A stretch of 64,000 bases of DNA from Candidatus Woesebacteria bacterium UBA5941. GTDB taxonomy: Bacteria > Patescibacteriota > Microgenomatia > UBA8517. Under the pieces are notes generated by a model. The model was given only the letters and a program-made list of their open reading frames with translations, ran no database searches and had not been told where the DNA came from. Made by a program: the position numbers and the translations under genes. This document shows, piece after piece, positions 37,123 through 51,398 of this stretch (positions within the stretch are counted from its first letter, which is position 1; every line of letters starts with the position of its first letter). The stretch covers positions 17,238 through 81,237 of the forward strand of contig DJCV01000017.1 of NCBI GenBank assembly GCA_002430735.1, in the 5' to 3' direction.

Positions 37123-39435
37123 TTACGGATTAGGAGTAGCCGTTTGGAATGATCTAAAATTTACTGGATATCCAATAACTACTTTGCCCATTGGGAATGC
37201 ACAATCTAAACAAATATTCGTTCCTAACGGATCAGTGATGACTAAATGATTTTCCATTTGAGTATTCTCTGGGAGGATATCGTTTGGCGCATAGGTGTTT
37301 GAAAGCCGATCAAATGGAAGATCCATGCGTTGTGCACCATTCGCTGGTACTGTGCCATCAGTATAAAACTCATAACGCTGCGGACACCCATTGCTTGCAT
37401 CATTTGGCAAAAATCCAGTGTTTGCACAAATCATAGTTCCAGTAACGTTATCTGGTTGCACCGGCCATGCAGCACCTTTGTCAGTCGGGTAGTATGCACC
37501 AGCTGCCGCTTTATCAAGCACTTTCTTCATAATCGCATTCCAAATTGGAGAAGCACCCGACACTCCTGATACTCCGCCACTCATTGGCGAATTGTCATTA
37601 TTTCCAACCCATACGATCCCGACAGCATGTGGTGTGTACCCATCTGTCCAGTTGTCTCGTCTGTCATTTGTTGTTCCTGTTTTAACTGATACCTCAGGAT
37701 GTCCCGCAACATTGAGGAATGATGAAGGTCCAAATGCCGCTGTTCTTGCATTATTATCTTGCAACGCATGACTAATCAGAAAAGTAACATCAGGCTCTAA
37801 TATTCGAGGACCGCTGAGTGGATCGACTTTGTGTTCGTACAAGACTTTACCGTTCCAGTCTTCAACCTTTTGTATACCGAAAAGGTTTTGCTTAATTCCA
37901 CCGTTTGCAAAGACACCATATGCCGTGGCCATATCAAAGATAGTAACTTCGCCGCCACCTAATGTGAGTGACAAACCATAATTTTTTGGGTCTTGAAGCG
38001 TCGTGAGTCCCAAGTCGCGAGCAAATGTCACGAAATTTTCCAGCCCGTTGAGGGCGAGGACTCTGACGGCTGGGATATTATATGAATTGCCGAGGGCAAA
38101 CCTCACTTGTGATGCGCCATGGAACGTTCCATCGTAGTTGACCGGGCAATATGATTCTTGTCCGACCACTTGGAAACAGGTTGGAATATCAGCAAGAGCA
38201 GTAGAGAGGGTTATTTTCTTATCTCGCAATGCGAGTGCGTAGTTAAATGGCTTAATAGATGAACCTGGTTGTCTCTTTGCAAAAATAATATTCACTTTTC
38301 CATCTTCATCTGTTGCAAAGTAGTCTTTTGAACCAACCATTGAGAGAATTTCTCCTGTTTTTGGATAGGTTACGAGTGCTGCACCGTTTCCAACCTGTTG
38401 CTTCGTGAGTTTTGCAACTTCTTTAGCGACAGCAGCCTCAGCAGTCGCCTGCAACTCAAGGTCGAGTGTTGTGGTTACCCGTAAACCACCTTTTTCAACG
38501 ACACTATCCCCAAACATGTCAGCAAGCTGCTCCTTAATCCAAAGAGAGAAGTGTGGAGCCACAAGGGGACTTGGTTTCGCATACGCAATGTCTGCCTCGT
38601 AGGCTTCTGTTGCTTGCTCTTGAGTGATGTATTTATCTTCGACCATTCGACTCAACACCAATTGCTGGCGCTCTTTTGCAAGCTCAGGTTTTGCACCAAA
38701 TGGAGAGAAACGAGTCGGCGATGCAGTGAGTCCAGCAAGCAGTGACGCTTCTGACAGATTTAGTTGAGCAACCGATTTTCCGAAATAGAGCTGAGAAGCT
38801 GCTTCTACACCGTAGGCTGTTGACCCATATGGAATTTGATTTAAATAAAGCTCTAGGATTTGATCTTTTGAGTATCTGACCTCCACAAGCGTCGCTAAAA
38901 TGAATTCGCGAATTTTACGTTTCAATGTTCGTTCAGGTGTGAGGAGTGCGCTTTTAACGAGCTGTTGGGTTAATGTTGACCCTCCTTCTAGTTGCCCTTG
39001 GAAAACGGTTTTATAGGCTGCGCGCACCATTCCTGGGATAGAGAATCCGCTGTGCTTGTAAAAATCTTTGTCTTCAACTGAAATGGTTGCTTGTTTTACA
39101 ACATCAGGAATTTCATTTAGTTTGACGGGAGTTCTTCGTTCGCTTGCATAGATCTCATAAATCACTGAACCGTTCCGGTCAAGAAGTTTTGTTGAAACCG
39201 CTTGGTTTTGTGAAAGATTGTCGGGGAGTGGAAGCCCCCAGAGTACCCATGCTCCAAGGAGCGCAATACCACTAAAAAAGAGTGCTGCCATGATCATGAG
39301 TGCCTTTTTACTAACCCGCAACCGTTTTAAGAGAGTTTGTTTCACTCGACGATTCTGTGCTGCTTCTTTTTCTACAACGACTTCAGGGTGGGTTGCTCGG
39401 ATACGACGTTTTAGCTTTCTTTTTTTACTTGGCAT
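37123..39435 (-). CDS. class A penicillin-binding protein, second paralogue
   Basis: ATISVEDKDFYKHSGFS, GGSTLTQQLVKS, SSIKP, KTGT. Confidence 0.9.
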   Translation of the reverse strand: MPSKKRKLKRRIRATHPEVVVEKEAAQNRRVKQTLLKRLRVSKKALMIMAALFFSGIALLGAWVLWGLPLPDNLSQNQAVSTKLLDRNGSVIYEIYASERRTPVKLNEIPDVVKQATISVEDKDFYKHSGFSIPGMVRAAYKTVFQGQLEGGSTLTQQLVKSALLTPERTLKRKIREFILATLVEVRYSKDQILELYLNQIPYGSTAYGVEAASQLYFGKSVAQLNLSEASLLAGLTASPTRFSPFGAKPELAKERQQLVLSRMVEDKYITQEQATEAYEADIAYAKPSPLVAPHFSLWIKEQLADMFGDSVVEKGGLRVTTTLDLELQATAEAAVAKEVAKLTKQQVGNGAALVTYPKTGEILSMVGSKDYFATDEDGKVNIIFAKRQPGSSIKPFNYALALRDKKITLSTALADIPTCFQVVGQESYCPVNYDGTFHGASQVRFALGNSYNIPAVRVLALNGLENFVTFARDLGLTTLQDPKNYGLSLTLGGGEVTIFDMATAYGVFANGGIKQNLFGIQKVEDWNGKVLYEHKVDPLSGPRILEPDVTFLISHALQDNNARTAAFGPSSFLNVAGHPEVSVKTGTTNDRRDNWTDGYTPHAVGIVWVGNNDNSPMSGGVSGVSGASPIWNAIMKKVLDKAAAGAYYPTDKGAAWPVQPDNVTGTMICANTGFLPNDASNGCPQRYEFYTDGTVPANGAQRMDLPFDRLSNTYAPNDILPENTQMENHLVITDPLGTNICLDCAFPMGKVVIGYPVNFRSFQTATPNP

Positions 39436-39461
39436 ACATCATATTATACTGGATTTTTGCT

Positions 39462-39959
39462 GTGTTACACTGGTTTGTGATTGATCTAACAACAAAACAG
39501 TGGTGGGATTACCTCGACCACGATCTTCAAGAATTATTGTTGCAAGCGTTTGACCTCCTGCGCGTTTCATCGACGCTTGATAGTTATCGCGATTACTCGT
39601 TTATTGTATTCCCGGCAAGTAAGGCATATGAAGGATTTCTAAAGAAGATTTTCTTAGACATGGGCTTTATTACTCGTGAAGATTACGATGGCACTCGATT
39701 TCGTATTGGAAAAGCATTAAATCCAAGCCTTGAGCGCGAGGCTCGAAACGGTCAGTGGGTATACGAGAAACTAGAGCACTATTGCAATGGAAAAGACTTA
39801 CCAGATCTTTTATGGACGACATGGAAAGAGTGTCGAAATGCTGTTTTTCATTGGTTTCCAAAAGATGCACGAGCATTAACGCGTGATGAGGCAGGAGAAC
39901 GGTTGAATCGTGTTATTTATGCAATAGACTCTGTCTTTAGGGAGTGTAAAATAAAATGA
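39462..39959 (+). CDS. putative HEPN-motif protein (R-x4-H near C-terminus); start uncertain
   Basis: ECRNAVFHW = RNxxxH HEPN-type motif; all-alpha character; track start GTG 39357 lies inside the PBP gene on the opposite strand, GTG 39462 used here. Confidence 0.4.
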   Translation: MLHWFVIDLTTKQWWDYLDHDLQELLLQAFDLLRVSSTLDSYRDYSFIVFPASKAYEGFLKKIFLDMGFITREDYDGTRFRIGKALNPSLEREARNGQWVYEKLEHYCNGKDLPDLLWTTWKECRNAVFHWFPKDARALTRDEAGERLNRVIYAIDSVFRECKIK

Positions 39960-40612
39960 AGATGAAGAAAGTAATTGCCCTACAAGTTCGTCATGTTACC
40001 TTATTGTTTGCATATCTTCTTATCGTGTGGGGTTTTTACCGGCTGTTATTTCAAGTACCAGAACCATTTGATGAATTGCTCGTAAAGCCAGTAGTTTGGC
40101 TCGTTCCTGTGCTGATATTTTTGAAGAAGGAAAAGCTAGGACTTAATAGCATCGGAATTACAAATAAAAACCTTTTTCCCGCGATTTATTTTTCCTTGGT
40201 TCTCGGTGCGCTTTTTGCTTTCGAAGGATTTTTTATTAATTATTTTAAATATAAAGGGTCGTTGTTCTCTGCAAACATAGGGGAATATGATTTGTATTTT
40301 GCACTCCTTCTATCCGTCATAACGGGTATCTCTGAGGAATTAACATTTAGAGGGTATTTCTATACGCGTCTTGTGAATATTTTAAAGAATGAATGGAAAG
40401 CGACTCTTATTACCAGTGCAGGCTGGACAATGATTCACCTTCCGATCGCACTCTTTGATTGGAAGCTTGATCTTTCAGCCCTAAGCATTTATCTTCTTTT
40501 GATTTTCATCTTCGGTTTCGGTGCATCATTTATTTATGCTCGAACACGAAATGTCATTGCTCCAATCCTTCTCCATGTAATGTGGGCATGGCCGATCCTG
40601 CTCTTTCGTTAA
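39956..40612 (+). CDS. CPBP family intramembrane metalloprotease (CAAX protease / Abi domain)
   Basis: SEELTFRGYFY (EExxxR), WTMIHL (FxxxH-like), LLHVMWA; 6-7 TM; ATG overlaps the upstream stop (ATGA). Confidence 0.8.
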   Translation: MKMKKVIALQVRHVTLLFAYLLIVWGFYRLLFQVPEPFDELLVKPVVWLVPVLIFLKKEKLGLNSIGITNKNLFPAIYFSLVLGALFAFEGFFINYFKYKGSLFSANIGEYDLYFALLLSVITGISEELTFRGYFYTRLVNILKNEWKATLITSAGWTMIHLPIALFDWKLDLSALSIYLLLIFIFGFGASFIYARTRNVIAPILLHVMWAWPILLFR

Positions 40613-40672
40613 TCGTTTGGATATTTGACTCAATTCCTACAGAAGCCTATCCTATACTGGCCCAACACAATT

Positions 40673-41284
40673 ATGGTCGGCCGCCTTCTTACTCGAATAG
40701 CGACAGTATCATTAGCACTTTTTATTTTAGTTGTTTCACTTATCGAAACTTCTTCAATTAAGTATGCTTTCGGTGCTCGAGAAACTGCAAACCCTCATCC
40801 CACACCTCAAGTTGACGTAACCTATGCCTTGCCACATCCCGGGAGTGTCATGCCTGGGAATCCATTGTGGGTTGCAAAAGTTATGCGAGATAAGGTTTCA
40901 CTTAAACTCACCCTTGATCATGAAAGACGTGCTGGTTATGAATTGCACTTAGCGGACAAACGACTAGCCATGGGCTGGGAACTCTGGCTAAAAGCCGATA
41001 CGAATGAGGCAATTGCGACATTTGAAAAAGCAGAGGGGTACTTAAATAATGCATATTTAACGTTATTTGAATCAAATGATTTCTCCGACAGTCATGATTT
41101 TCTAAGACAACTTGCATATGCATCGCTTAAGCATCGGCAAGTATTAGAGAGCGTCTTAGCTGAGAGTAGTGATGAAGCGCGGCCAATGATCACAAAGCTA
41201 CTGGATACTTCAAAAACAATATACAAAGAAGCCTCTGCAAAAATGGAACAACTCCATCTAAATCCACCCGCAAATCCATTTTAA
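40673..41284 (+). CDS. DUF5667-like membrane-anchored protein
   Basis: N-terminal TM then MPGNPLWVAKVMRDKVSLKLTLDHERRAGYELHLADKRLAMG pattern; track start 40625 is TTG. Confidence 0.5.
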   Translation: MVGRLLTRIATVSLALFILVVSLIETSSIKYAFGARETANPHPTPQVDVTYALPHPGSVMPGNPLWVAKVMRDKVSLKLTLDHERRAGYELHLADKRLAMGWELWLKADTNEAIATFEKAEGYLNNAYLTLFESNDFSDSHDFLRQLAYASLKHRQVLESVLAESSDEARPMITKLLDTSKTIYKEASAKMEQLHLNPPANPF

Positions 41285-41336
41285 GACCTACTTCAGAACT
41301 TCACTCCCAGTCATTATCTGAACAATAAATGCTATA

Positions 41337-41365
41337 TTGACAATCTATATGTAGTGGCGCATTAT
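41337..41365 (+). promoter_or_regulatory. sigma70-like promoter TTGACA-17nt-CATTAT upstream of nrdR
   Basis: Perfect -35 at 41337-41342; the CTATAT direct repeat and an AT-rich near-palindrome (a weak NrdR-box candidate) sit in the spacer. Confidence 0.4.
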
Positions 41366-41404
41366 GAAATTCGCTACTGCTGGTAGCGGAAAATAGTTTC
41401 ACAC

Positions 41405-41854
41405 ATGAAATGTCCGTTTTGCGGGAAGGTAGAAAGCGAGGTCTTAGAAAGTCGGGTTGTTGAAGAAGGAAACGGCATCCGCAGACGAAGATCTTGTTTG
41501 AAATGCAAAAAACGATTCTCAACACTTGAGCGGGTTAAGGAATCGACGATTTGGGTAGTAAAGAGTGACGGCAGACGCGAGCAATTTAGTCGAGAGAAAA
41601 TTAGAAAAGGTATTTTGAGAGCAGTTGAGAAACGATCCGTGCCATTGAGTTTAGTTGATGATATTGTAGGACGTGTTGAGAAAGATATTGCGAGAAAACA
41701 ATTACAGGAAGTTTCATCACACACGATTGGAAGGACTGTATTGAAGTATTTACAGAAAACAGATAAAGTGGCCTGGTTGCGATTCGCAAGTGTGTATTTT
41801 CAGTTTGAAGATTTGGCTGACTTTGAAAAACTTATAGAAAAGATGAATCCATGA
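41405..41854 (+). CDS. nrdR: transcriptional repressor NrdR
   Basis: MKCPFCG...RRRRSCLKCKKRFSTLE zinc ribbon plus ATP-cone. Confidence 0.95.
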   Translation: MKCPFCGKVESEVLESRVVEEGNGIRRRRSCLKCKKRFSTLERVKESTIWVVKSDGRREQFSREKIRKGILRAVEKRSVPLSLVDDIVGRVEKDIARKQLQEVSSHTIGRTVLKYLQKTDKVAWLRFASVYFQFEDLADFEKLIEKMNP

Positions 41855-44415: not shown

Positions 44416-44961
44416 ATGGCCGTTTATACCAGGAAAGGTGATACCGGAACTACTTCAATGTATGAGGCAGACCCAAAAAAGCGCTGTCGTGTGTCAAAGT
44501 CAGATCTTCGAGTACAAGCAATTGGTGCCGTTGATGAAGTGAATAGTTACCTTGGCATTTGTAATTTTTATGTACAGTCTTCAAACACAAAAAAGTTTGT
44601 AACAGACATTCAACGAAATTTGTTTACTATTGGATCAATTCTTTCAAAAGCTCCATTAGAAATAAAGAAAGCTGAAACAAAAAAACTTGAAGGAGAAATT
44701 GATCGTATTGAAGAATCACTTCCACCACTCAGAAACTTTTTACTTCCAGAAGGGAGTATCTCTGCTGTACATTTTATGTATGCGCGTGCACTCGCCCGGC
44801 GCGCTGAGCGAAGAGTGGTAGCTCTGCACAATAAAGAAGCGGTGGATAGTGGGGTCCTTGAATATATAAATAGACTCTCTGATTATTTGTTTTGTATATT
44901 TCGTGAGGAGAACGCGTTAAGTGGGGAAAAGGAAGAGCTCTGGATTGGGAGAAAGTCTTAA
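44416..44961 (+). CDS. pduO: ATP:cob(I)alamin adenosyltransferase, PduO type
   Basis: MAVYTRKGDTGTTSM N-terminal signature; 181 aa. Confidence 0.85.
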   Translation: MAVYTRKGDTGTTSMYEADPKKRCRVSKSDLRVQAIGAVDEVNSYLGICNFYVQSSNTKKFVTDIQRNLFTIGSILSKAPLEIKKAETKKLEGEIDRIEESLPPLRNFLLPEGSISAVHFMYARALARRAERRVVALHNKEAVDSGVLEYINRLSDYLFCIFREENALSGEKEELWIGRKS

Positions 44962-46256
44962 AACAGAAACGCCGCAAACAGTTGTGCTGCGATATTTAAA
45001 ATCACATTTGGCTCAGTTATCTCAAGCGTTTCAGTAGGTTTTTTAGCTCGTTTTCTTTCAGCAATCTTTTTGATATCTTCAAGTGATTTACCTGATTGAA
45101 ATGCGCGATCACACGTTTTACAAATCATACAAAGTCCAAGAGCTTGCTCAGATCCCGCTTTCTCACTAATGCATGCCTTTAGCGATTCCATTGCGCAAAT
45201 TCCAGTATTAGGAAATTCTTCCTCTCCTTCAATAAGACGAGCACCGAATGGTGTTTCAACATACGTTCCGCCACCTCCATTACATCCACCATCTTCTTGA
45301 AATGCTTCGTATGCAGCAGTGTACTCAGCTGCGGTTTGTGGAGTCCTGCCGATAACTGAAAGTGATTTCATATCAAGTACTGTTCGGCCCATCTCGTACA
45401 GTAGGGTTGCCATTGAAGCATCGCTGTTGTCACGAATATTTTGTCGAGTGAATTCTGAAAACTGTTGGATGCGATTTTTAATATGAGCTTCTATTTCCGG
45501 ATAGCGGTTAAGACACATGCGCATATGTGCCATCGACTCACCAGTCACACTTTCAATCGCATCTACGACATCGTGTGAGGTGACACTTGTTTCGATGAGG
45601 GCACTGGTAAGTGCAGTGATTCTCTCTATTTCGCCTCTATTTCTATTCAGCGTGTTCCCATTTAAAACTTCGTGTAAGTCCTCGCTTCCATCAAGGGACA
45701 TTTTTGAAACAAAGGTCATACTTTCAATAGCACCACCGCGATTGCGATAGAAATATACTTGTGCCTCGGGGTAGCTTATTCCGTTATATCCTGACCATCC
45801 TGGTGGACTAATTAACACAAAACTATCATTGTGCTTTGAACATAAGAGTTTCTCTTCAAGTTCTTGAATGGATTTATATATCGTTCCATTTCGCTCTTCA
45901 GGAGAAACCGTATTGATAAGTGGTTGGTTTCCATACTTTGGGCAAACAACACGACCGTTTTCCATGGTAATTGGGAATGGAAGAACCGGAAGTCTTCGGT
46001 AGTATTCATCGTGCAGTCCACGCAGGTCTTGTTCGTTTTTCTCAACAACACTTTCAATCCATTCAGACGGTGTTTCATAGTCACCGTATGAAGAACGGAT
46101 CATTTCTATCTGACCGTGGATATCAAAACCGGTTCCTTTTAATTGCACGACATGAGCATCAATACGAGGAGAGGGAGTGGTTTCTGTACGTTCAATAAGC
46201 ATAGTCCTGCACGGGAAATCTTGATTGTTAGTTTTCCGACTATACGGTTGCGGCAC
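44958..46256 (-). CDS. hypothetical 432-aa protein, no recognisable family; Cys-rich C-terminal segment and hydrophobic tail
   Basis: GTG start; GGCNGGGG...GICAMESLKACISEKAG...CMICKTCDRAF; ends VILNIAAQLFAAFLF. Confidence 0.5.
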   Translation of the reverse strand: MPQPYSRKTNNQDFPCRTMLIERTETTPSPRIDAHVVQLKGTGFDIHGQIEMIRSSYGDYETPSEWIESVVEKNEQDLRGLHDEYYRRLPVLPFPITMENGRVVCPKYGNQPLINTVSPEERNGTIYKSIQELEEKLLCSKHNDSFVLISPPGWSGYNGISYPEAQVYFYRNRGGAIESMTFVSKMSLDGSEDLHEVLNGNTLNRNRGEIERITALTSALIETSVTSHDVVDAIESVTGESMAHMRMCLNRYPEIEAHIKNRIQQFSEFTRQNIRDNSDASMATLLYEMGRTVLDMKSLSVIGRTPQTAAEYTAAYEAFQEDGGCNGGGGTYVETPFGARLIEGEEEFPNTGICAMESLKACISEKAGSEQALGLCMICKTCDRAFQSGKSLEDIKKIAERKRAKKPTETLEITEPNVILNIAAQLFAAFLF

Positions 46257-47353: not shown

Positions 47354-49717
47354 ATGAAATCCCCACTGCCACTCTCAAATCCAGAAGCTGTAATAGGCTT
47401 TGATTTCGCGACTATTTTTTTGGCACTGTTTCTCTTTGCATTCGTCTTCTTATCCGTTGTAATCGGGATTTGGATCTGGACCCATTTTTATCGATACAGA
47501 GATCGAGAAAAACGCTCGCTTGATTCAGTTCTGTTGCAAGTGGCTGTCTCACGGGGGAATGAAGTCAAAATTGATGCAATGGAACAGCTGTTTGCGTCAC
47601 TGCATGCGATTAAAAAAGGTGGATGGAAACAACGATTTTCTACACAGCCTCAAATCTCATTTGAGATAATTGCAAAGCCAGAAGAAATTCGCTTTTATGT
47701 GTGGACCTATAAAAGCTTGCAGGATCTTGTTGAAAAACAAATACACGGTGCATATCCTGATGCCGAGATCGTTGAAGTTCCTGAACACAATATTTTTACT
47801 CAGGATGGAAAAGTTGCATACAAGTCATTTCAGCTCAAGAAAGATAGTTTCTACCCAATAAAAACGTTTAAAGAATTGCCCACTGATCCACTTGCATCAC
47901 TTACTTCAGCTCTTGCAAAAATGGGACCAGGAGAAGGAGCCGCTATTCAAATTCTAGTGTCTCCACAAGACAACGATTGGAAGTCTGGTGGAAGAGGATT
48001 TATTGCTGAAACAAAAAAACAAGAAAGTAATCCCGAAAAGGCGAAGTATTCAGTCCCAGCCAAAACCTTGGAAGCCGTTGAAAATAAAATATCAAAACCT
48101 GGGTTTGATATCTCAATTCGAGTTGTTGTGGTTTCACCGACAGAAGAAGGTGCAAGTGGGCACTTAAGTAATATTTCTACTGCATTTTCTCAGTTTGATG
48201 GTGAATATAACGGATTTGGAAGCCGAAAAATCCGGCGAAAAACAGCATTTGTGGAGGATTTTGTCTACCGATATCACCCAATGTTTGAAGTATTTGGAAA
48301 TCACAAATCCATTTTAAGTTCAGAAGAACTTGCCACCATTTTCCATTTCCCAAATAAACTCATCACCACTCCGCATATCTTATGGCTCACCGCCAAGTCA
48401 GCACCTGCACCTGCACAAATTCCTACTGAAGGGCTCTATCTTGGCATGAGTAATTATCGAGGGGTGAAGCGACCAGTGTACATGGGGGAGGCCGACCGTC
48501 TACGACACACCTACATTATTGGAAAGACAGGAACAGGTAAGTCAAAGTTTTTGCTTGAGCTTATGAAGCAAGATATCAAAAACGGAAAAGGACTCTGTTT
48601 TATGGATCCTCATGGTGATGCAGTTGAAGAGTTGCTTGAATACATTCCACCCGAACGCGCAGAGGATGTTATTTACTTCAGGCCATCTGATGTGGATCGG
48701 CCCATGGGATTAAATCTTTTGGAAGCAAAAACTGAAGATCAGAAACATTTTGTAACTACTTCTGTCATTAACTTAATGTATAAGCTCTTTGATCCTTACA
48801 AGACCGGTATTGTTGGACCACGATTTGAACATGCGGTGAGAAATGCAATGTTGACGGTTATGAGTGAACCTGGAAACACATTCATTGAAGTCATGAGAAT
48901 TTTGACTGATTCAAATTACGTTAAAGAAATGCTTCCAAAAGTACAAGATCCGATTGTGAGGCGGTATTGGACAGATCAAATTGCACAAACTTCAGATTTT
49001 CATAAATCAGAAACCCTAGACTATATCACGTCAAAATTTGGACGATTTGTGACGAATAAAATGATTCGAAATTTAATCGGTCAATCACAAAGTTCGTTTG
49101 ATTTTAGAAAGATCATGGATGAAGGGAAAATTCTTCTTGTGAACCTCTCAAAAGGGGAATTGGGAGAAGAAAACTCAAGTTTTTTGGGACTTATTTTAGT
49201 TCCTCGAATCTTGATGGCTGCCATGAGTCGTGCGGACATTCCCGAGGAACAACGCCGCGACTTTTTCTTGTACGTTGACGAGTTTCAAAACTTCGCGACT
49301 CCCGACTTCTCACAGATCTTGTCTGAGGCTCGTAAGTATAAACTTTCTCTTACAGTAGCGAACCAGTTCGTGGGACAAATCGATGAAGAAATCAAAAACG
49401 CAATCTTTGGAAACGTAGGAACTATCATGAGTTACCGAGTGGGGGTCAGTGACGCCAATTATTTAGCACGAGAATTTGCACCAGTATTTAATGAGGATGA
49501 TTTATTGAATATTGAACGCTATCACGTCTATATTCGAACCCTGGTGAATAATGAGCCAGTTCCGCCATTTTCAATGGATTTGACTCGTGATTTAAAGCAA
49601 TCAGGGAACACGAAGAGCGCAGAAGTTGCAAAGCTTATTAAGGACATGAGTCGTATTAAGTACGGCCGTGACTTACGCCTCGTTGAGACAGAGATTGCCA
49701 GAAGATCACGCTTGTAG
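47354..49717 (+). CDS. membrane-anchored FtsK/HerA-superfamily P-loop ATPase (DUF87/HerA-like; TraD/VirD4 coupling-protein-like architecture)
   Basis: N-terminal TM; Walker A YIIGKTGTGKSKF; KILLVNLSKGELGEENSSFLGLILVPRI then FLYVDEFQNFA (Walker B), as in HerA/TraG-like ATPases. Confidence 0.65.
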   Translation: MKSPLPLSNPEAVIGFDFATIFLALFLFAFVFLSVVIGIWIWTHFYRYRDREKRSLDSVLLQVAVSRGNEVKIDAMEQLFASLHAIKKGGWKQRFSTQPQISFEIIAKPEEIRFYVWTYKSLQDLVEKQIHGAYPDAEIVEVPEHNIFTQDGKVAYKSFQLKKDSFYPIKTFKELPTDPLASLTSALAKMGPGEGAAIQILVSPQDNDWKSGGRGFIAETKKQESNPEKAKYSVPAKTLEAVENKISKPGFDISIRVVVVSPTEEGASGHLSNISTAFSQFDGEYNGFGSRKIRRKTAFVEDFVYRYHPMFEVFGNHKSILSSEELATIFHFPNKLITTPHILWLTAKSAPAPAQIPTEGLYLGMSNYRGVKRPVYMGEADRLRHTYIIGKTGTGKSKFLLELMKQDIKNGKGLCFMDPHGDAVEELLEYIPPERAEDVIYFRPSDVDRPMGLNLLEAKTEDQKHFVTTSVINLMYKLFDPYKTGIVGPRFEHAVRNAMLTVMSEPGNTFIEVMRILTDSNYVKEMLPKVQDPIVRRYWTDQIAQTSDFHKSETLDYITSKFGRFVTNKMIRNLIGQSQSSFDFRKIMDEGKILLVNLSKGELGEENSSFLGLILVPRILMAAMSRADIPEEQRRDFFLYVDEFQNFATPDFSQILSEARKYKLSLTVANQFVGQIDEEIKNAIFGNVGTIMSYRVGVSDANYLAREFAPVFNEDDLLNIERYHVYIRTLVNNEPVPPFSMDLTRDLKQSGNTKSAEVAKLIKDMSRIKYGRDLRLVETEIARRSRL

Positions 49718-50217: not shown

Positions 50218-50289
50218 GGGCCTATCGTTTAACGGTTAGGACACGATTCTTATAAAGTCGGTACGATGGTTCGACTCCATCTAGGCCCA
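50218..50289 (+). tRNA. tRNA-Ile, anticodon UAU (TAT)
   Basis: Manual fold: acceptor GGGCCTA/TAGGCCC, D-arm GTTT/GGAC with GG loop, anticodon stem CGATT/AGTCG, loop CTTATAA, T-arm GATGG-TTCGACT-CCATC, discriminator A. Confidence 0.7.
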
Positions 50290-50310
50290 CACTGGTTTTT
50301 TACTACTTAT

Positions 50311-50525: not shown

Positions 50526-51398
50526 TTACAACTCTTCTAAGTGTTGTTTACTTCCTGAAGTCTTAATTTGAGCAAGCTCTAAATATCTTTCAGTAGTTGA
50601 AAGTCTCTTGTGACCGGAAACACGAGAAAGGAGCACGAGGTCAACTCCACGTTTTAAGTTTTCAACCATAAAGGTCGTTCGCAAATCATTTACTGAATAT
50701 TGTGGCATTTCAGCTTTTTGCAAATATCGATCGATTGCAGCTCGAATGTTTCGAACAGCAAGTGGTTTACCGTTTTTGCTTACAAATAGGTGAACTGCCT
50801 TCGGAAGTTGTGGTCGGCTTGCCATGTACATTTGAATAGCAGCAATAGCAGCTGTAGTTAATGGAACTTCACGTTGAGGCTGTGTTGCGTATGATTCAAC
50901 GATTAATCGATCCTTTTTAATGCTTTCCAGCTTCAAATTAGCTACCTCTGAAATACGGAGCCCAGCTTGTAAAATAAGTTCAACCATTGCTGAGATTCGA
51001 ACATCGCCTCGAACATAATCTCTGAGTGATCGATATTCCTTTTCAGTTAAAAACTGTGGCATGCTAGACTCAATTTTAGGGTGGCTAACATCTCGTGAAG
51101 GGTCTTTTTCAATAGATTTTTGGTCCTTCATCCATCGGAAAAAGGTTTTAATGGCGTTTAACTTTCGGGAAGTTGATTTAGCCGTGTATTTTTGAGCAAG
51201 CAAAAAATCTCGAAAATTTTCGAGATCTACGCTGCGTACTTCACTCGCCAAAGTCTTATTTCGCTCATATAAAAAGCTCAATAATTGATCAATATCTGAT
51301 CGGTAGGCTAATACGGTCGAAGGAGATCGGCCTTTTTCTGTAAGACTCTGAATGAATTCTGGTACGTAGTCTGCGAGCTGTTTGTTAGTGTCTGTCAT
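50526..51398 (-). CDS. tyrosine recombinase, XerC/XerD-like
   Basis: N-terminal SAM-like domain; catalytic R (GLRISEV), HxxR (GHKRLSTTERYL) with Tyr; 290 aa. Confidence 0.8.
   Translation of the reverse strand: MTDTNKQLADYVPEFIQSLTEKGRSPSTVLAYRSDIDQLLSFLYERNKTLASEVRSVDLENFRDFLLAQKYTAKSTSRKLNAIKTFFRWMKDQKSIEKDPSRDVSHPKIESSMPQFLTEKEYRSLRDYVRGDVRISAMVELILQAGLRISEVANLKLESIKKDRLIVESYATQPQREVPLTTAAIAAIQMYMASRPQLPKAVHLFVSKNGKPLAVRNIRAAIDRYLQKAEMPQYSVNDLRTTFMVENLKRGVDLVLLSRVSGHKRLSTTERYLELAQIKTSGSKQHLEEL

Follow-up and report, generated by a model that had tools for sequence, protein, structure and literature searches.

HEPN ribonucleases (RNases) are known almost wholly as effectors of conflict systems, that is, of toxin–antitoxin, abortive-infection (Abi) and CRISPR systems. 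What, then, is a gene for a HEPN protein doing among genes of ordinary metabolism, divergent from a gene for a class A penicillin-binding protein (PBP) and directly ahead of a gene for a CPBP-family membrane protein? The question is raised by a stretch of 64,000 nucleotides (nt) from Candidatus Woesebacteria bacterium UBA5941 (GenBank assembly GCA_002430735.1, contig DJCV01000017.1, positions 17,238 to 81,237 of the forward strand), which, at its full length, is referred to here as the window. Three forward-strand open reading frames (ORFs) lie there between the PBP gene and nrdR (41405), and these encode, in order, a HEPN protein, a CPBP protein and a DUF5667 protein. An initial annotation, made from the sequence alone, took the first two for a candidate toxin–immunity or Abi-like module, or instead for a membrane-tethered RNase system. 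The answer favored here, which is given about an even chance of being correct, is that the 160-amino-acid (aa) product would be an endoribonuclease of the HEPN type, docked on CPBP close to the membrane and fixed in the Microgenomatia. Nuclease activity, physical contact between HEPN and CPBP, and the biological role are all things that I infer, i.e., from comparison of sequences, models and gene neighborhoods.

The HEPN assignment started with the peptide ECRNAVFHW, which had been read as the R-x4-6-H catalytic motif of an all-alpha protein, and both parts of that claim hold. Residues are numbered here on a 165-aa form of the protein, i.e., one starting at GTG 39462. In an alignment of 28 homologues (53–77% identity) R125, N126, F129, H130 and W131 are invariant, as is a second block, F50-P51...K54...E57-G-F-L-K61, and the R-x4-H motif is invariant as well in 25 HEPN–CPBP fusions and 22 transmembrane (TM)-anchored paralogues, both of which are taken up below. 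Judged by this conservation, the motif is not a chance match. Pfam gives the window protein RNase LS-type families only. The match to HEPN_RnaseLS (PF18869) is borderline, that is, 29.3 bits with a gathering cut-off of 29, and covers only positions 12–60 of the 124 of the profile, while the match to RnlA-toxin_DBD (PF19034) falls below its cut-off; both families nonetheless are matched by all 28 of the aligned homologues, with E ≤ 0.01 for HEPN_RnaseLS. NCBIfam assigns the protein to no family. The AlphaFold2 model is all-helical (predicted local distance difference test, pLDDT, 89.5; predicted template modeling score, pTM, 0.87), and presents the four-helix up-down bundle of the HEPN fold.

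LsoA, among proteins of the PDB, is reached by profile only: phmmer with the single sequence returned just one spurious match (E 0.63), whereas the family profile finds LsoA with E 0.003 and aligns with it over the full length of the HEPN domain. K54, E57, R125 and H130 are there matched to R243, E246, R305 and H310 of LsoA, with the first of the four catalytic positions being K in the window protein but R in RnlA and LsoA. In RnlA, both cleavage of RNA and toxicity depend on every one of the equivalent residues, i.e., R255, E258, R318 and H323 (PMC8266594), and HEPN domains which carry the motif are predicted RNases, with non-catalytic ones lacking it (PMC3710099). Pfam, alignment, model and profile match together therefore point to a minimal RnlA/LsoA-class domain, one that carries the complete predicted active site of that class.

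The second ORF is equally clear as a CPBP protease, as had been proposed, with EELTFRG, TMIH and HVMW all present and PF02517 matched with a Pfam E of 5.6e-18. Structure comparison matches its fold to those of SpdC and Rce1, and its N-terminus is predicted to be cytoplasmic. Among 75 orthologues E127, E128, R132 and H161 are conserved in 100% and H207 in 96%, with the HxxxN motif retained in part, i.e., with its final N replaced by E, Q or A. Given this conservation of catalytic residues, the protein is likely an active glutamic intramembrane protease. It falls outside of the named CPBP subfamilies of NCBIfam, its best scores being 25.5 bits for Mrt_core (cut-off 100) and 22 for MroQ (cut-off 270).

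That the HEPN and CPBP genes are functionally tied is a case resting mainly on fusions of the two. In the window the genes overlap by the 4 nt, stop codon with start codon, that the initial annotation had reported, which is an arrangement of tight coupling. In a census of 75 orthologous loci, with start codons assigned heuristically, the gap from HEPN stop to CPBP start is no more than 0 nt in 24 and no more than 18 nt in 48. Beyond such closeness, HEPN and CPBP are fused in frame in at least 25 protein clusters of Shapirobacteria and further Microgenomates. These are proteins of 369–393 aa, which NCBI labels ‘CPBP family intramembrane metalloprotease’ and which are 40–64% identical to the query fusion (P0125). 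Their HEPN half keeps E54, R121, N122 and H126 invariant, with K51 found in at least 90%, and their CPBP half keeps E292, E293, R297, H326 and H372 invariant. As modeled (pLDDT 83.5), the last HEPN helix of the fusion, residues 137–158, passes directly into the first TM helix, residues 160–195, which would keep the fused HEPN domain against the membrane on its cytoplasmic side. The genes downstream of the fusion are reshuffled in these lineages, i.e., with a leucyl-tRNA synthetase gene inserted, nrdD found instead of nrdJ, and the DUF5667 gene kilobases off, and yet the fused gene is still divergent from the PBP pair. A distant HEPN branch, furthermore, carries 2–4 N-terminal TM helices of its own, and in it none of K, E, R, N and H varies. 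Membrane attachment thus is arrived at by three different routes, and it can be argued from this that the HEPN family acts at the membrane. Of the suggestions made in the initial annotation, it is ‘membrane-tethered RNase system’ that best describes the in-frame fusions together with this paralogous branch.

The fused loci display as well a conserved single-TM ORF of 43–50 aa, ending in LG[IF]LPA[IFS], which is found beside the fusion in all three of them (9181–9333 in L085, 9175–9306 in L086, and 7584–7721 in L087), downstream in two and upstream in one. It was looked for in the window and in the Woesebacteria loci, and is absent from both. The small protein could be a substrate or a subunit of CPBP.

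How the HEPN gene is inherited bears on what kind of gene it is. The family is a narrow one: only 217 clusters with E ≤ 1e-3 came out when 1.84 billion representatives were searched exhaustively with the profile, and a word-indexed search gave 1095 proteins (90% clustering), nearly all of them 158–177 aa long. A relative is encoded by 260 GTDB species genomes, of which the best 80 matches were sampled as genome loci, and, wherever a title is informative, these best 80 all are Woesebacteria, Microgenomates or unclassified Patescibacteria. In 84 loci the genes run beta-lactamase-like, PBP, PBP and then, divergently, HEPN, CPBP, DUF5667, nrdR, nrdJ and cob(I)alamin adenosyltransferase (CobAT), and the order in the window, amid genes of ordinary metabolism, is identical. 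PBP is the most persistent neighbor of the pair, being retained by all of the Woesebacteria loci, by the fused lineages, and in L091 and L092. A composition profile reveals neither a GC anomaly nor an island signature at the locus. Median identity to the window protein is 61% for PBP_a as well as for NrdR, 52% for HEPN as well as for CPBP, 45% for CobAT, and 33% for DUF5667; HEPN, that is, has diverged more slowly than CobAT and DUF5667 and somewhat faster than PBP_a and NrdR. Pairwise distances correlate (Spearman) at 0.65 between HEPN and PBP versus 0.71 between PBP and NrdR. There are no HEPN relatives among viral contigs, INPHARED phages or PLSDB plasmids, while PADLOC, run on the three window proteins, returned nothing relevant. 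PHROGs holds none for HEPN and, for CPBP, only one weak match of unknown function, and in the window no defence genes flank the pair. Given the synteny, the neighbor-like rates and the lack of mobile relatives, HEPN is best described as a vertically inherited, core-like gene rather than a mobile one, and the HEPN–CPBP pair is, in the relatives sampled, a vertically inherited and fixed feature of Microgenomatia.

The relationship with PBP extends to where the two genes begin. A HEPN start at 39357 had been doubted in the initial annotation, with 39462 or 39477 considered likelier, and that doubt was warranted: the 39357 start overlaps the divergent PBP gene and for that reason is an artefact. 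The public database places the start at GTG 39462, giving 165 aa (P0001). It is best placed, however, at GTG 39477, because there the GTG-ATT-GAT-CTA of the window pairs codon for codon with the ATG-ATA-GAC-CTG (M-I-D-L-T) of L005, which is the closest orthologue in this comparison. The start codons of HEPN and PBP then are 41 nt apart, i.e., with 39436–39476 between them. Just upstream of PBP is a −10-like box, AGTATAAT, found at the equivalent position in most orthologous loci (as compared over L001–L092), which suggests that the PBP mRNA is near-leaderless and the divergent promoters interlocked, with the PBP −35 region falling within the 5′ end of HEPN. On the HEPN side, an extended −10-like element, TGTGTTACACT, precedes GTG 39477 and is common to L005 and L006. 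A scan of 39000–41500 for promoters and terminators gave counts not above those of shuffled sequence.

The favored mechanism may be set out as follows. The HEPN protein, which probably is a dimer as are other HEPN RNases, would cleave RNA near the membrane, working at its cytoplasmic face, where it would be docked on the co-translated CPBP protein or be under its regulation. CPBP would be a scaffold, a proteolytic regulator, or both, in the manner in which SpdC, a protein of CPBP fold, scaffolds SagB. The function of the module would then be linked to the envelope and common to the Microgenomatia lineage, and the module would not be a selfish toxin–antitoxin system. RNA cleavage that is Ire1-like, that is, taking place at the inner face of the membrane in answer to surface signals, has been proposed previously (PMC3710099, section 15). 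A full Ire1 analogue at this locus, in which CPBP, lying in the membrane next to the PBPs, senses how peptidoglycan or lipid-carrier metabolism stands and then, as a scaffold or through proteolytic release, switches the HEPN RNase, with membrane-proximal transcripts then being cleaved, is a rather improbable reading. Among its targets could be the PBP mRNA, divergent and near-leaderless, and, if true, it would represent a Microgenomatia-specific, post-transcriptional envelope-stress pathway.

A number of observations weigh against the docked RNase. The unfused HEPN protein is predicted to have no membrane anchor of its own, and the pTM of the fusion model, at 0.69, is but moderate support for a fixed arrangement of its domains. 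Adjacency within Woesebacteria is only weak evidence of linkage, because the whole block is syntenic, and the sampling of loci was itself anchored on HEPN. Conservation of the neighborhood, which the initial annotation had named as a check on the pair, is found for the HEPN–CPBP block in the 84 loci but does not extend to every genome: in 8 species HEPN, with its R/H motif intact (e.g., P0052), has no CPBP beside it, as DUF5667 instead directly follows HEPN and no CPBP lies within the 16 kb examined. These species occupy about seven scattered positions in a neighbor-joining tree of HEPN, suggesting about seven independent losses, though a tree of that kind, from a 160-aa protein, is indicative only. 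In L092, conversely, an orthologous CPBP gene is directly divergent from PBP with no HEPN within 12.6 kb. With each found without the other, the partnership is facultative. Lastly, the sister branch of TM-anchored HEPN proteins is non-syntenic and resides in defence or mobile contexts. At L088 the neighbors of these paralogues, which are of 230–365 aa, are an EcoRI-type methylase and a GmrSD/HNH gene; at L094, genes for a LexA-like repressor, a DUF4145 HEPN protein, an Mrr-like nuclease and an AAA_14/DUF4143 protein; at L096, a large serine recombinase; at L099, an AAA ATPase with a subtilase; and at L100, an integrase with a Phd/PIN pair. The paralogues may act in defence, as membrane HEPN effectors that stand alone, and the window branch may be a domesticated relative of such a membrane-anchored defence RNase, or else a fixed defence gene.

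The latter is the main rival, which is unlikely though with a real chance of being right: a fixed Abi or other defence module in which HEPN is a suicide or dormancy effector, and CPBP senses phage-induced perturbation of the envelope and activates or releases it. The contexts of the sister branch speak for it, fusion to a membrane protein suits a sensor–effector design, and the closest relatives, RnlA and LsoA, are anti-phage toxins (PMC3710099; PMC8266594). A defence gene would not be expected, however, to occupy a single conserved site in all of the genomes sampled, to be inherited along with PBP and NrdR, and to diverge within the range of its housekeeping neighbors, nor to come back empty from PADLOC, from phages, plasmids and viral contigs, and from a search of its flanks for defence genes. 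The same fixed, syntenic and vertical inheritance tells against the module, whether toxin–immunity or Abi, that the initial annotation had put forward for this locus, as does the dispensability of either partner and the lack of an antitoxin-like neighbor. Were HEPN to be a toxin and CPBP its dedicated antidote or immunity protein, as in a classical two-gene pair, then their translational coupling would be accounted for, and some sources do annotate CPBP as ‘CAAX protease self-immunity’. But the toxin, R/H motif intact, then would be lacking its adjacent antidote in 8 species at some seven positions in the tree, and the antidote would be alone in L092. The fusion, furthermore, is stable, with both active sites kept down to 40% identity, which is unlike type II pairs; the pair is without signs of mobility; and there is neither an MNT, an RnlB nor any other antitoxin-like neighbor. 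This makes a toxin–immunity pair very improbable.

Two further readings dispense with, respectively, the nuclease and the partnership. Some HEPN domains bind nucleotides, e.g., those of sacsin and of aminoglycoside nucleotidyltransferases, and HEPN domains of both are among the structural matches here. HEPN might accordingly be a non-nuclease, that is, a nucleotide- or RNA-binding domain that regulates, or recruits substrates to, an active CPBP intramembrane protease involved in envelope biogenesis alongside the PBPs. Consistent with this are the fully conserved catalytic residues of CPBP and the CPBP of L092, which stays beside the PBP gene despite there being no HEPN. It is quite improbable nevertheless, as three divergent family branches all conserve the four residues that RnlA needs for catalysis, HEPN persists alone without CPBP, and motif-bearing HEPN domains are predicted RNases (PMC3710099). 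Alternatively, the two could be unrelated neighbors in a compact genome, their adjacency no more than frozen synteny. In Woesebacteria a whole 10-kb block is syntenic, hence any two of its genes co-occur, and HEPN and CPBP each have been lost separately. But the two are also found fused in frame, in an old and stable arrangement, and the adjacency of HEPN with CPBP outlasts rearrangement of the genes downstream, which leaves mere neighborliness scarcely credible.

The docked RNase may be compared with systems already known. Its closest relatives are the HEPN toxins of the RNase LS family of Escherichia coli, RnlA and LsoA (PF18869 plus PF19034), from which the window protein differs in having neither the N-terminal TBP-like and NRD domains nor an RnlB or Dmd-type antitoxin. 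That is, the HEPN domain is alone, and its neighbors, rather than those of RnlAB or LsoAB, are PBP, CPBP and DUF5667. It is not linked to plasmids or prophages, is instead a stand-alone 160-aa protein coupled or fused to CPBP, and is vertically inherited and confined to Microgenomatia, i.e., within the candidate phyla radiation (CPR). From type II toxin–antitoxin and Abi systems generally it differs in that co-occurrence is not obligate and the distribution is not patchy, mobile or island-associated. HepT/MntA (HEPN/MNT) systems involve another HEPN subfamily and possess an MNT nucleotidyltransferase, of which there is none here, and the distribution of the window protein is neither patchy nor mobile.

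Membrane-associated HEPN RNases are, in themselves, a known kind. RNase LS was assigned to the HEPN superfamily by Anantharaman et al. 2013 (PMC3710099), who also set out three groups of bacterial HEPN proteins that are TM-linked and predicted to be membrane-associated. Together with the eukaryotic Ire1 and C6orf70, those groups resemble the proposed arrangement in that an RNase domain of HEPN type, on the cytoplasmic side, is carried by a module embedded in the membrane. The three groups, however, are DUF4145, Abi2/Swt1 and Zn-ribbon-linked, with one or two TM helices, none being of the RNase LS class and none having CPBP, while Ire1 has a kinase–KEN architecture. Csx28, a type VI-B CRISPR accessory, likewise is a membrane protein with a divergent HEPN domain (bioRxiv 10.1101/2021.11.02.466367), but is a Cas13b-activated pore of an unrelated HEPN family and is CRISPR-linked, whereas the window locus has no CRISPR context. 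In the SpdC/LyrA–SagB system of Staphylococcus aureus, the partner of SpdC is an extracellular glucosaminidase and the role of SpdC is non-catalytic, versus a cytoplasmic HEPN partner and retained catalytic residues with the CPBP of the window. Full-text literature searches for HEPN with CPBP or CAAX found nothing relevant, in agreement with the initial view of the pair as undescribed. It is the CPBP partner and the architecture, then, that are undescribed as far as these searches reach.

Turning to the rest of the locus (Table 1), the pair is followed by the DUF5667 protein that had been annotated there, for which NCBIfam has no family. That protein was considered as a third component of the module and rejected, as outside of Woesebacteria it travels with nrd genes. 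It is found immediately upstream of nrdJ (class II) or nrdD (class III) even when away from HEPN–CPBP (L085, L086, L091, L092), and this constant placement suggests linkage with nrd instead. It probably is not part of the HEPN–CPBP module. Upstream of the pair, about 15 species possess an extra same-strand gene between PBP and HEPN, the end of which is no more than about 15 nt from where HEPN starts (loci L013, L015, L016, L022, L025, L041, L045, L070 and L077–L079 among them). Its product, of 140–200 aa, has a TM helix at the N-terminus as well as a domain conserved as ‘FPxDFPIYP...SW...WET’, and the gene is treated here as an unrelated insertion.

Table 1. Features of the HEPN–CPBP locus and of its surroundings, in window coordinates.
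Feature	Position	Strand	Remarks
Class A PBP gene	37123–39435	−	Transglycosylase + transpeptidase; divergent from HEPN; ATG at 39433–39435
−10-like box AGTATAAT	39443–39450	−	7 nt upstream of PBP ATG; putative promoter element
Extended −10-like element TGTGTTACACT	39461–39471		Precedes GTG 39477
HEPN gene	39477–39959	+	Single domain, RnlA/LsoA class; 160 aa from GTG 39477
K54-A-Y-E57	39621–39632	+	First half of predicted active site; both residues invariant; from LsoA alignment
Peptide ECRNAVFHW	39828–39854		Codons
R125-N-A-V-F-H130	39834–39851	+	R-x4-H HEPN motif; R codon 39834–39836, H codon 39849–39851
ATGA stop/start overlap, HEPN/CPBP	39956–39959	+	TGA 39957–39959, ATG 39956–39958; from sequence
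CPBP gene	39956–40612	+	Rce1-like, PF02517; polytopic membrane protein
CPBP motif EExxxR	40334–40351	+
CPBP H161	40436–40438	+
CPBP H207	40574–40576	+
DUF5667 gene	40625–41284	+	Pfam E 4.4e-7; one N-terminal TM helix predicted
432-aa ORF	44958–46256	−	No Pfam match
AdoCbl-II riboswitch RF01689	46222–46293	−	39.3 bits; gathering score 36.5
HerA/TraG/TrwB-like ATPase gene	47354–49717	+	787 aa; DUF87, TraG-D_C
tRNA-Ile, anticodon TAT	50218–50290	+	Anticodon unusual in bacteria
Tyrosine integrase gene	50526–51398	−

Further along the window, an adenosylcobalamin (vitamin B12) riboswitch of class AdoCbl-II lies directly upstream of the 432-aa ORF, which adjoins nrdJ, itself B12-dependent, and the CobAT gene and may encode an uncharacterised B12-related protein. 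A few kilobases downstream, the gene for the HerA/TraG/TrwB-like ATPase is near integrase and tRNA genes, i.e., a tRNA-Ile gene followed by the tyrosine integrase gene and two tRNA-Met genes, and this region may be the edge of an integrated element.

An RnlA-type HEPN domain here is a fixed, lineage-wide gene of a large CPR clade, and is tied to a CPBP membrane protein. If the reading of a docked RNase is true, then CPBP proteins would be an added class of partner in HEPN biology, and an uncharacterised clade of bacterial CPBP proteins would gain a concrete cytoplasmic partner. The pair would then also be a two-protein system, tractable by virtue of its small size, natural fusions and clear point mutants, in which to study the coupling of RNA cleavage with the envelope under minimal regulatory repertoires. 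It stands, too, as an example of the possible domestication of a toxin-type domain, one whose TM-anchored paralogues are still to be found in defence-island-like contexts.

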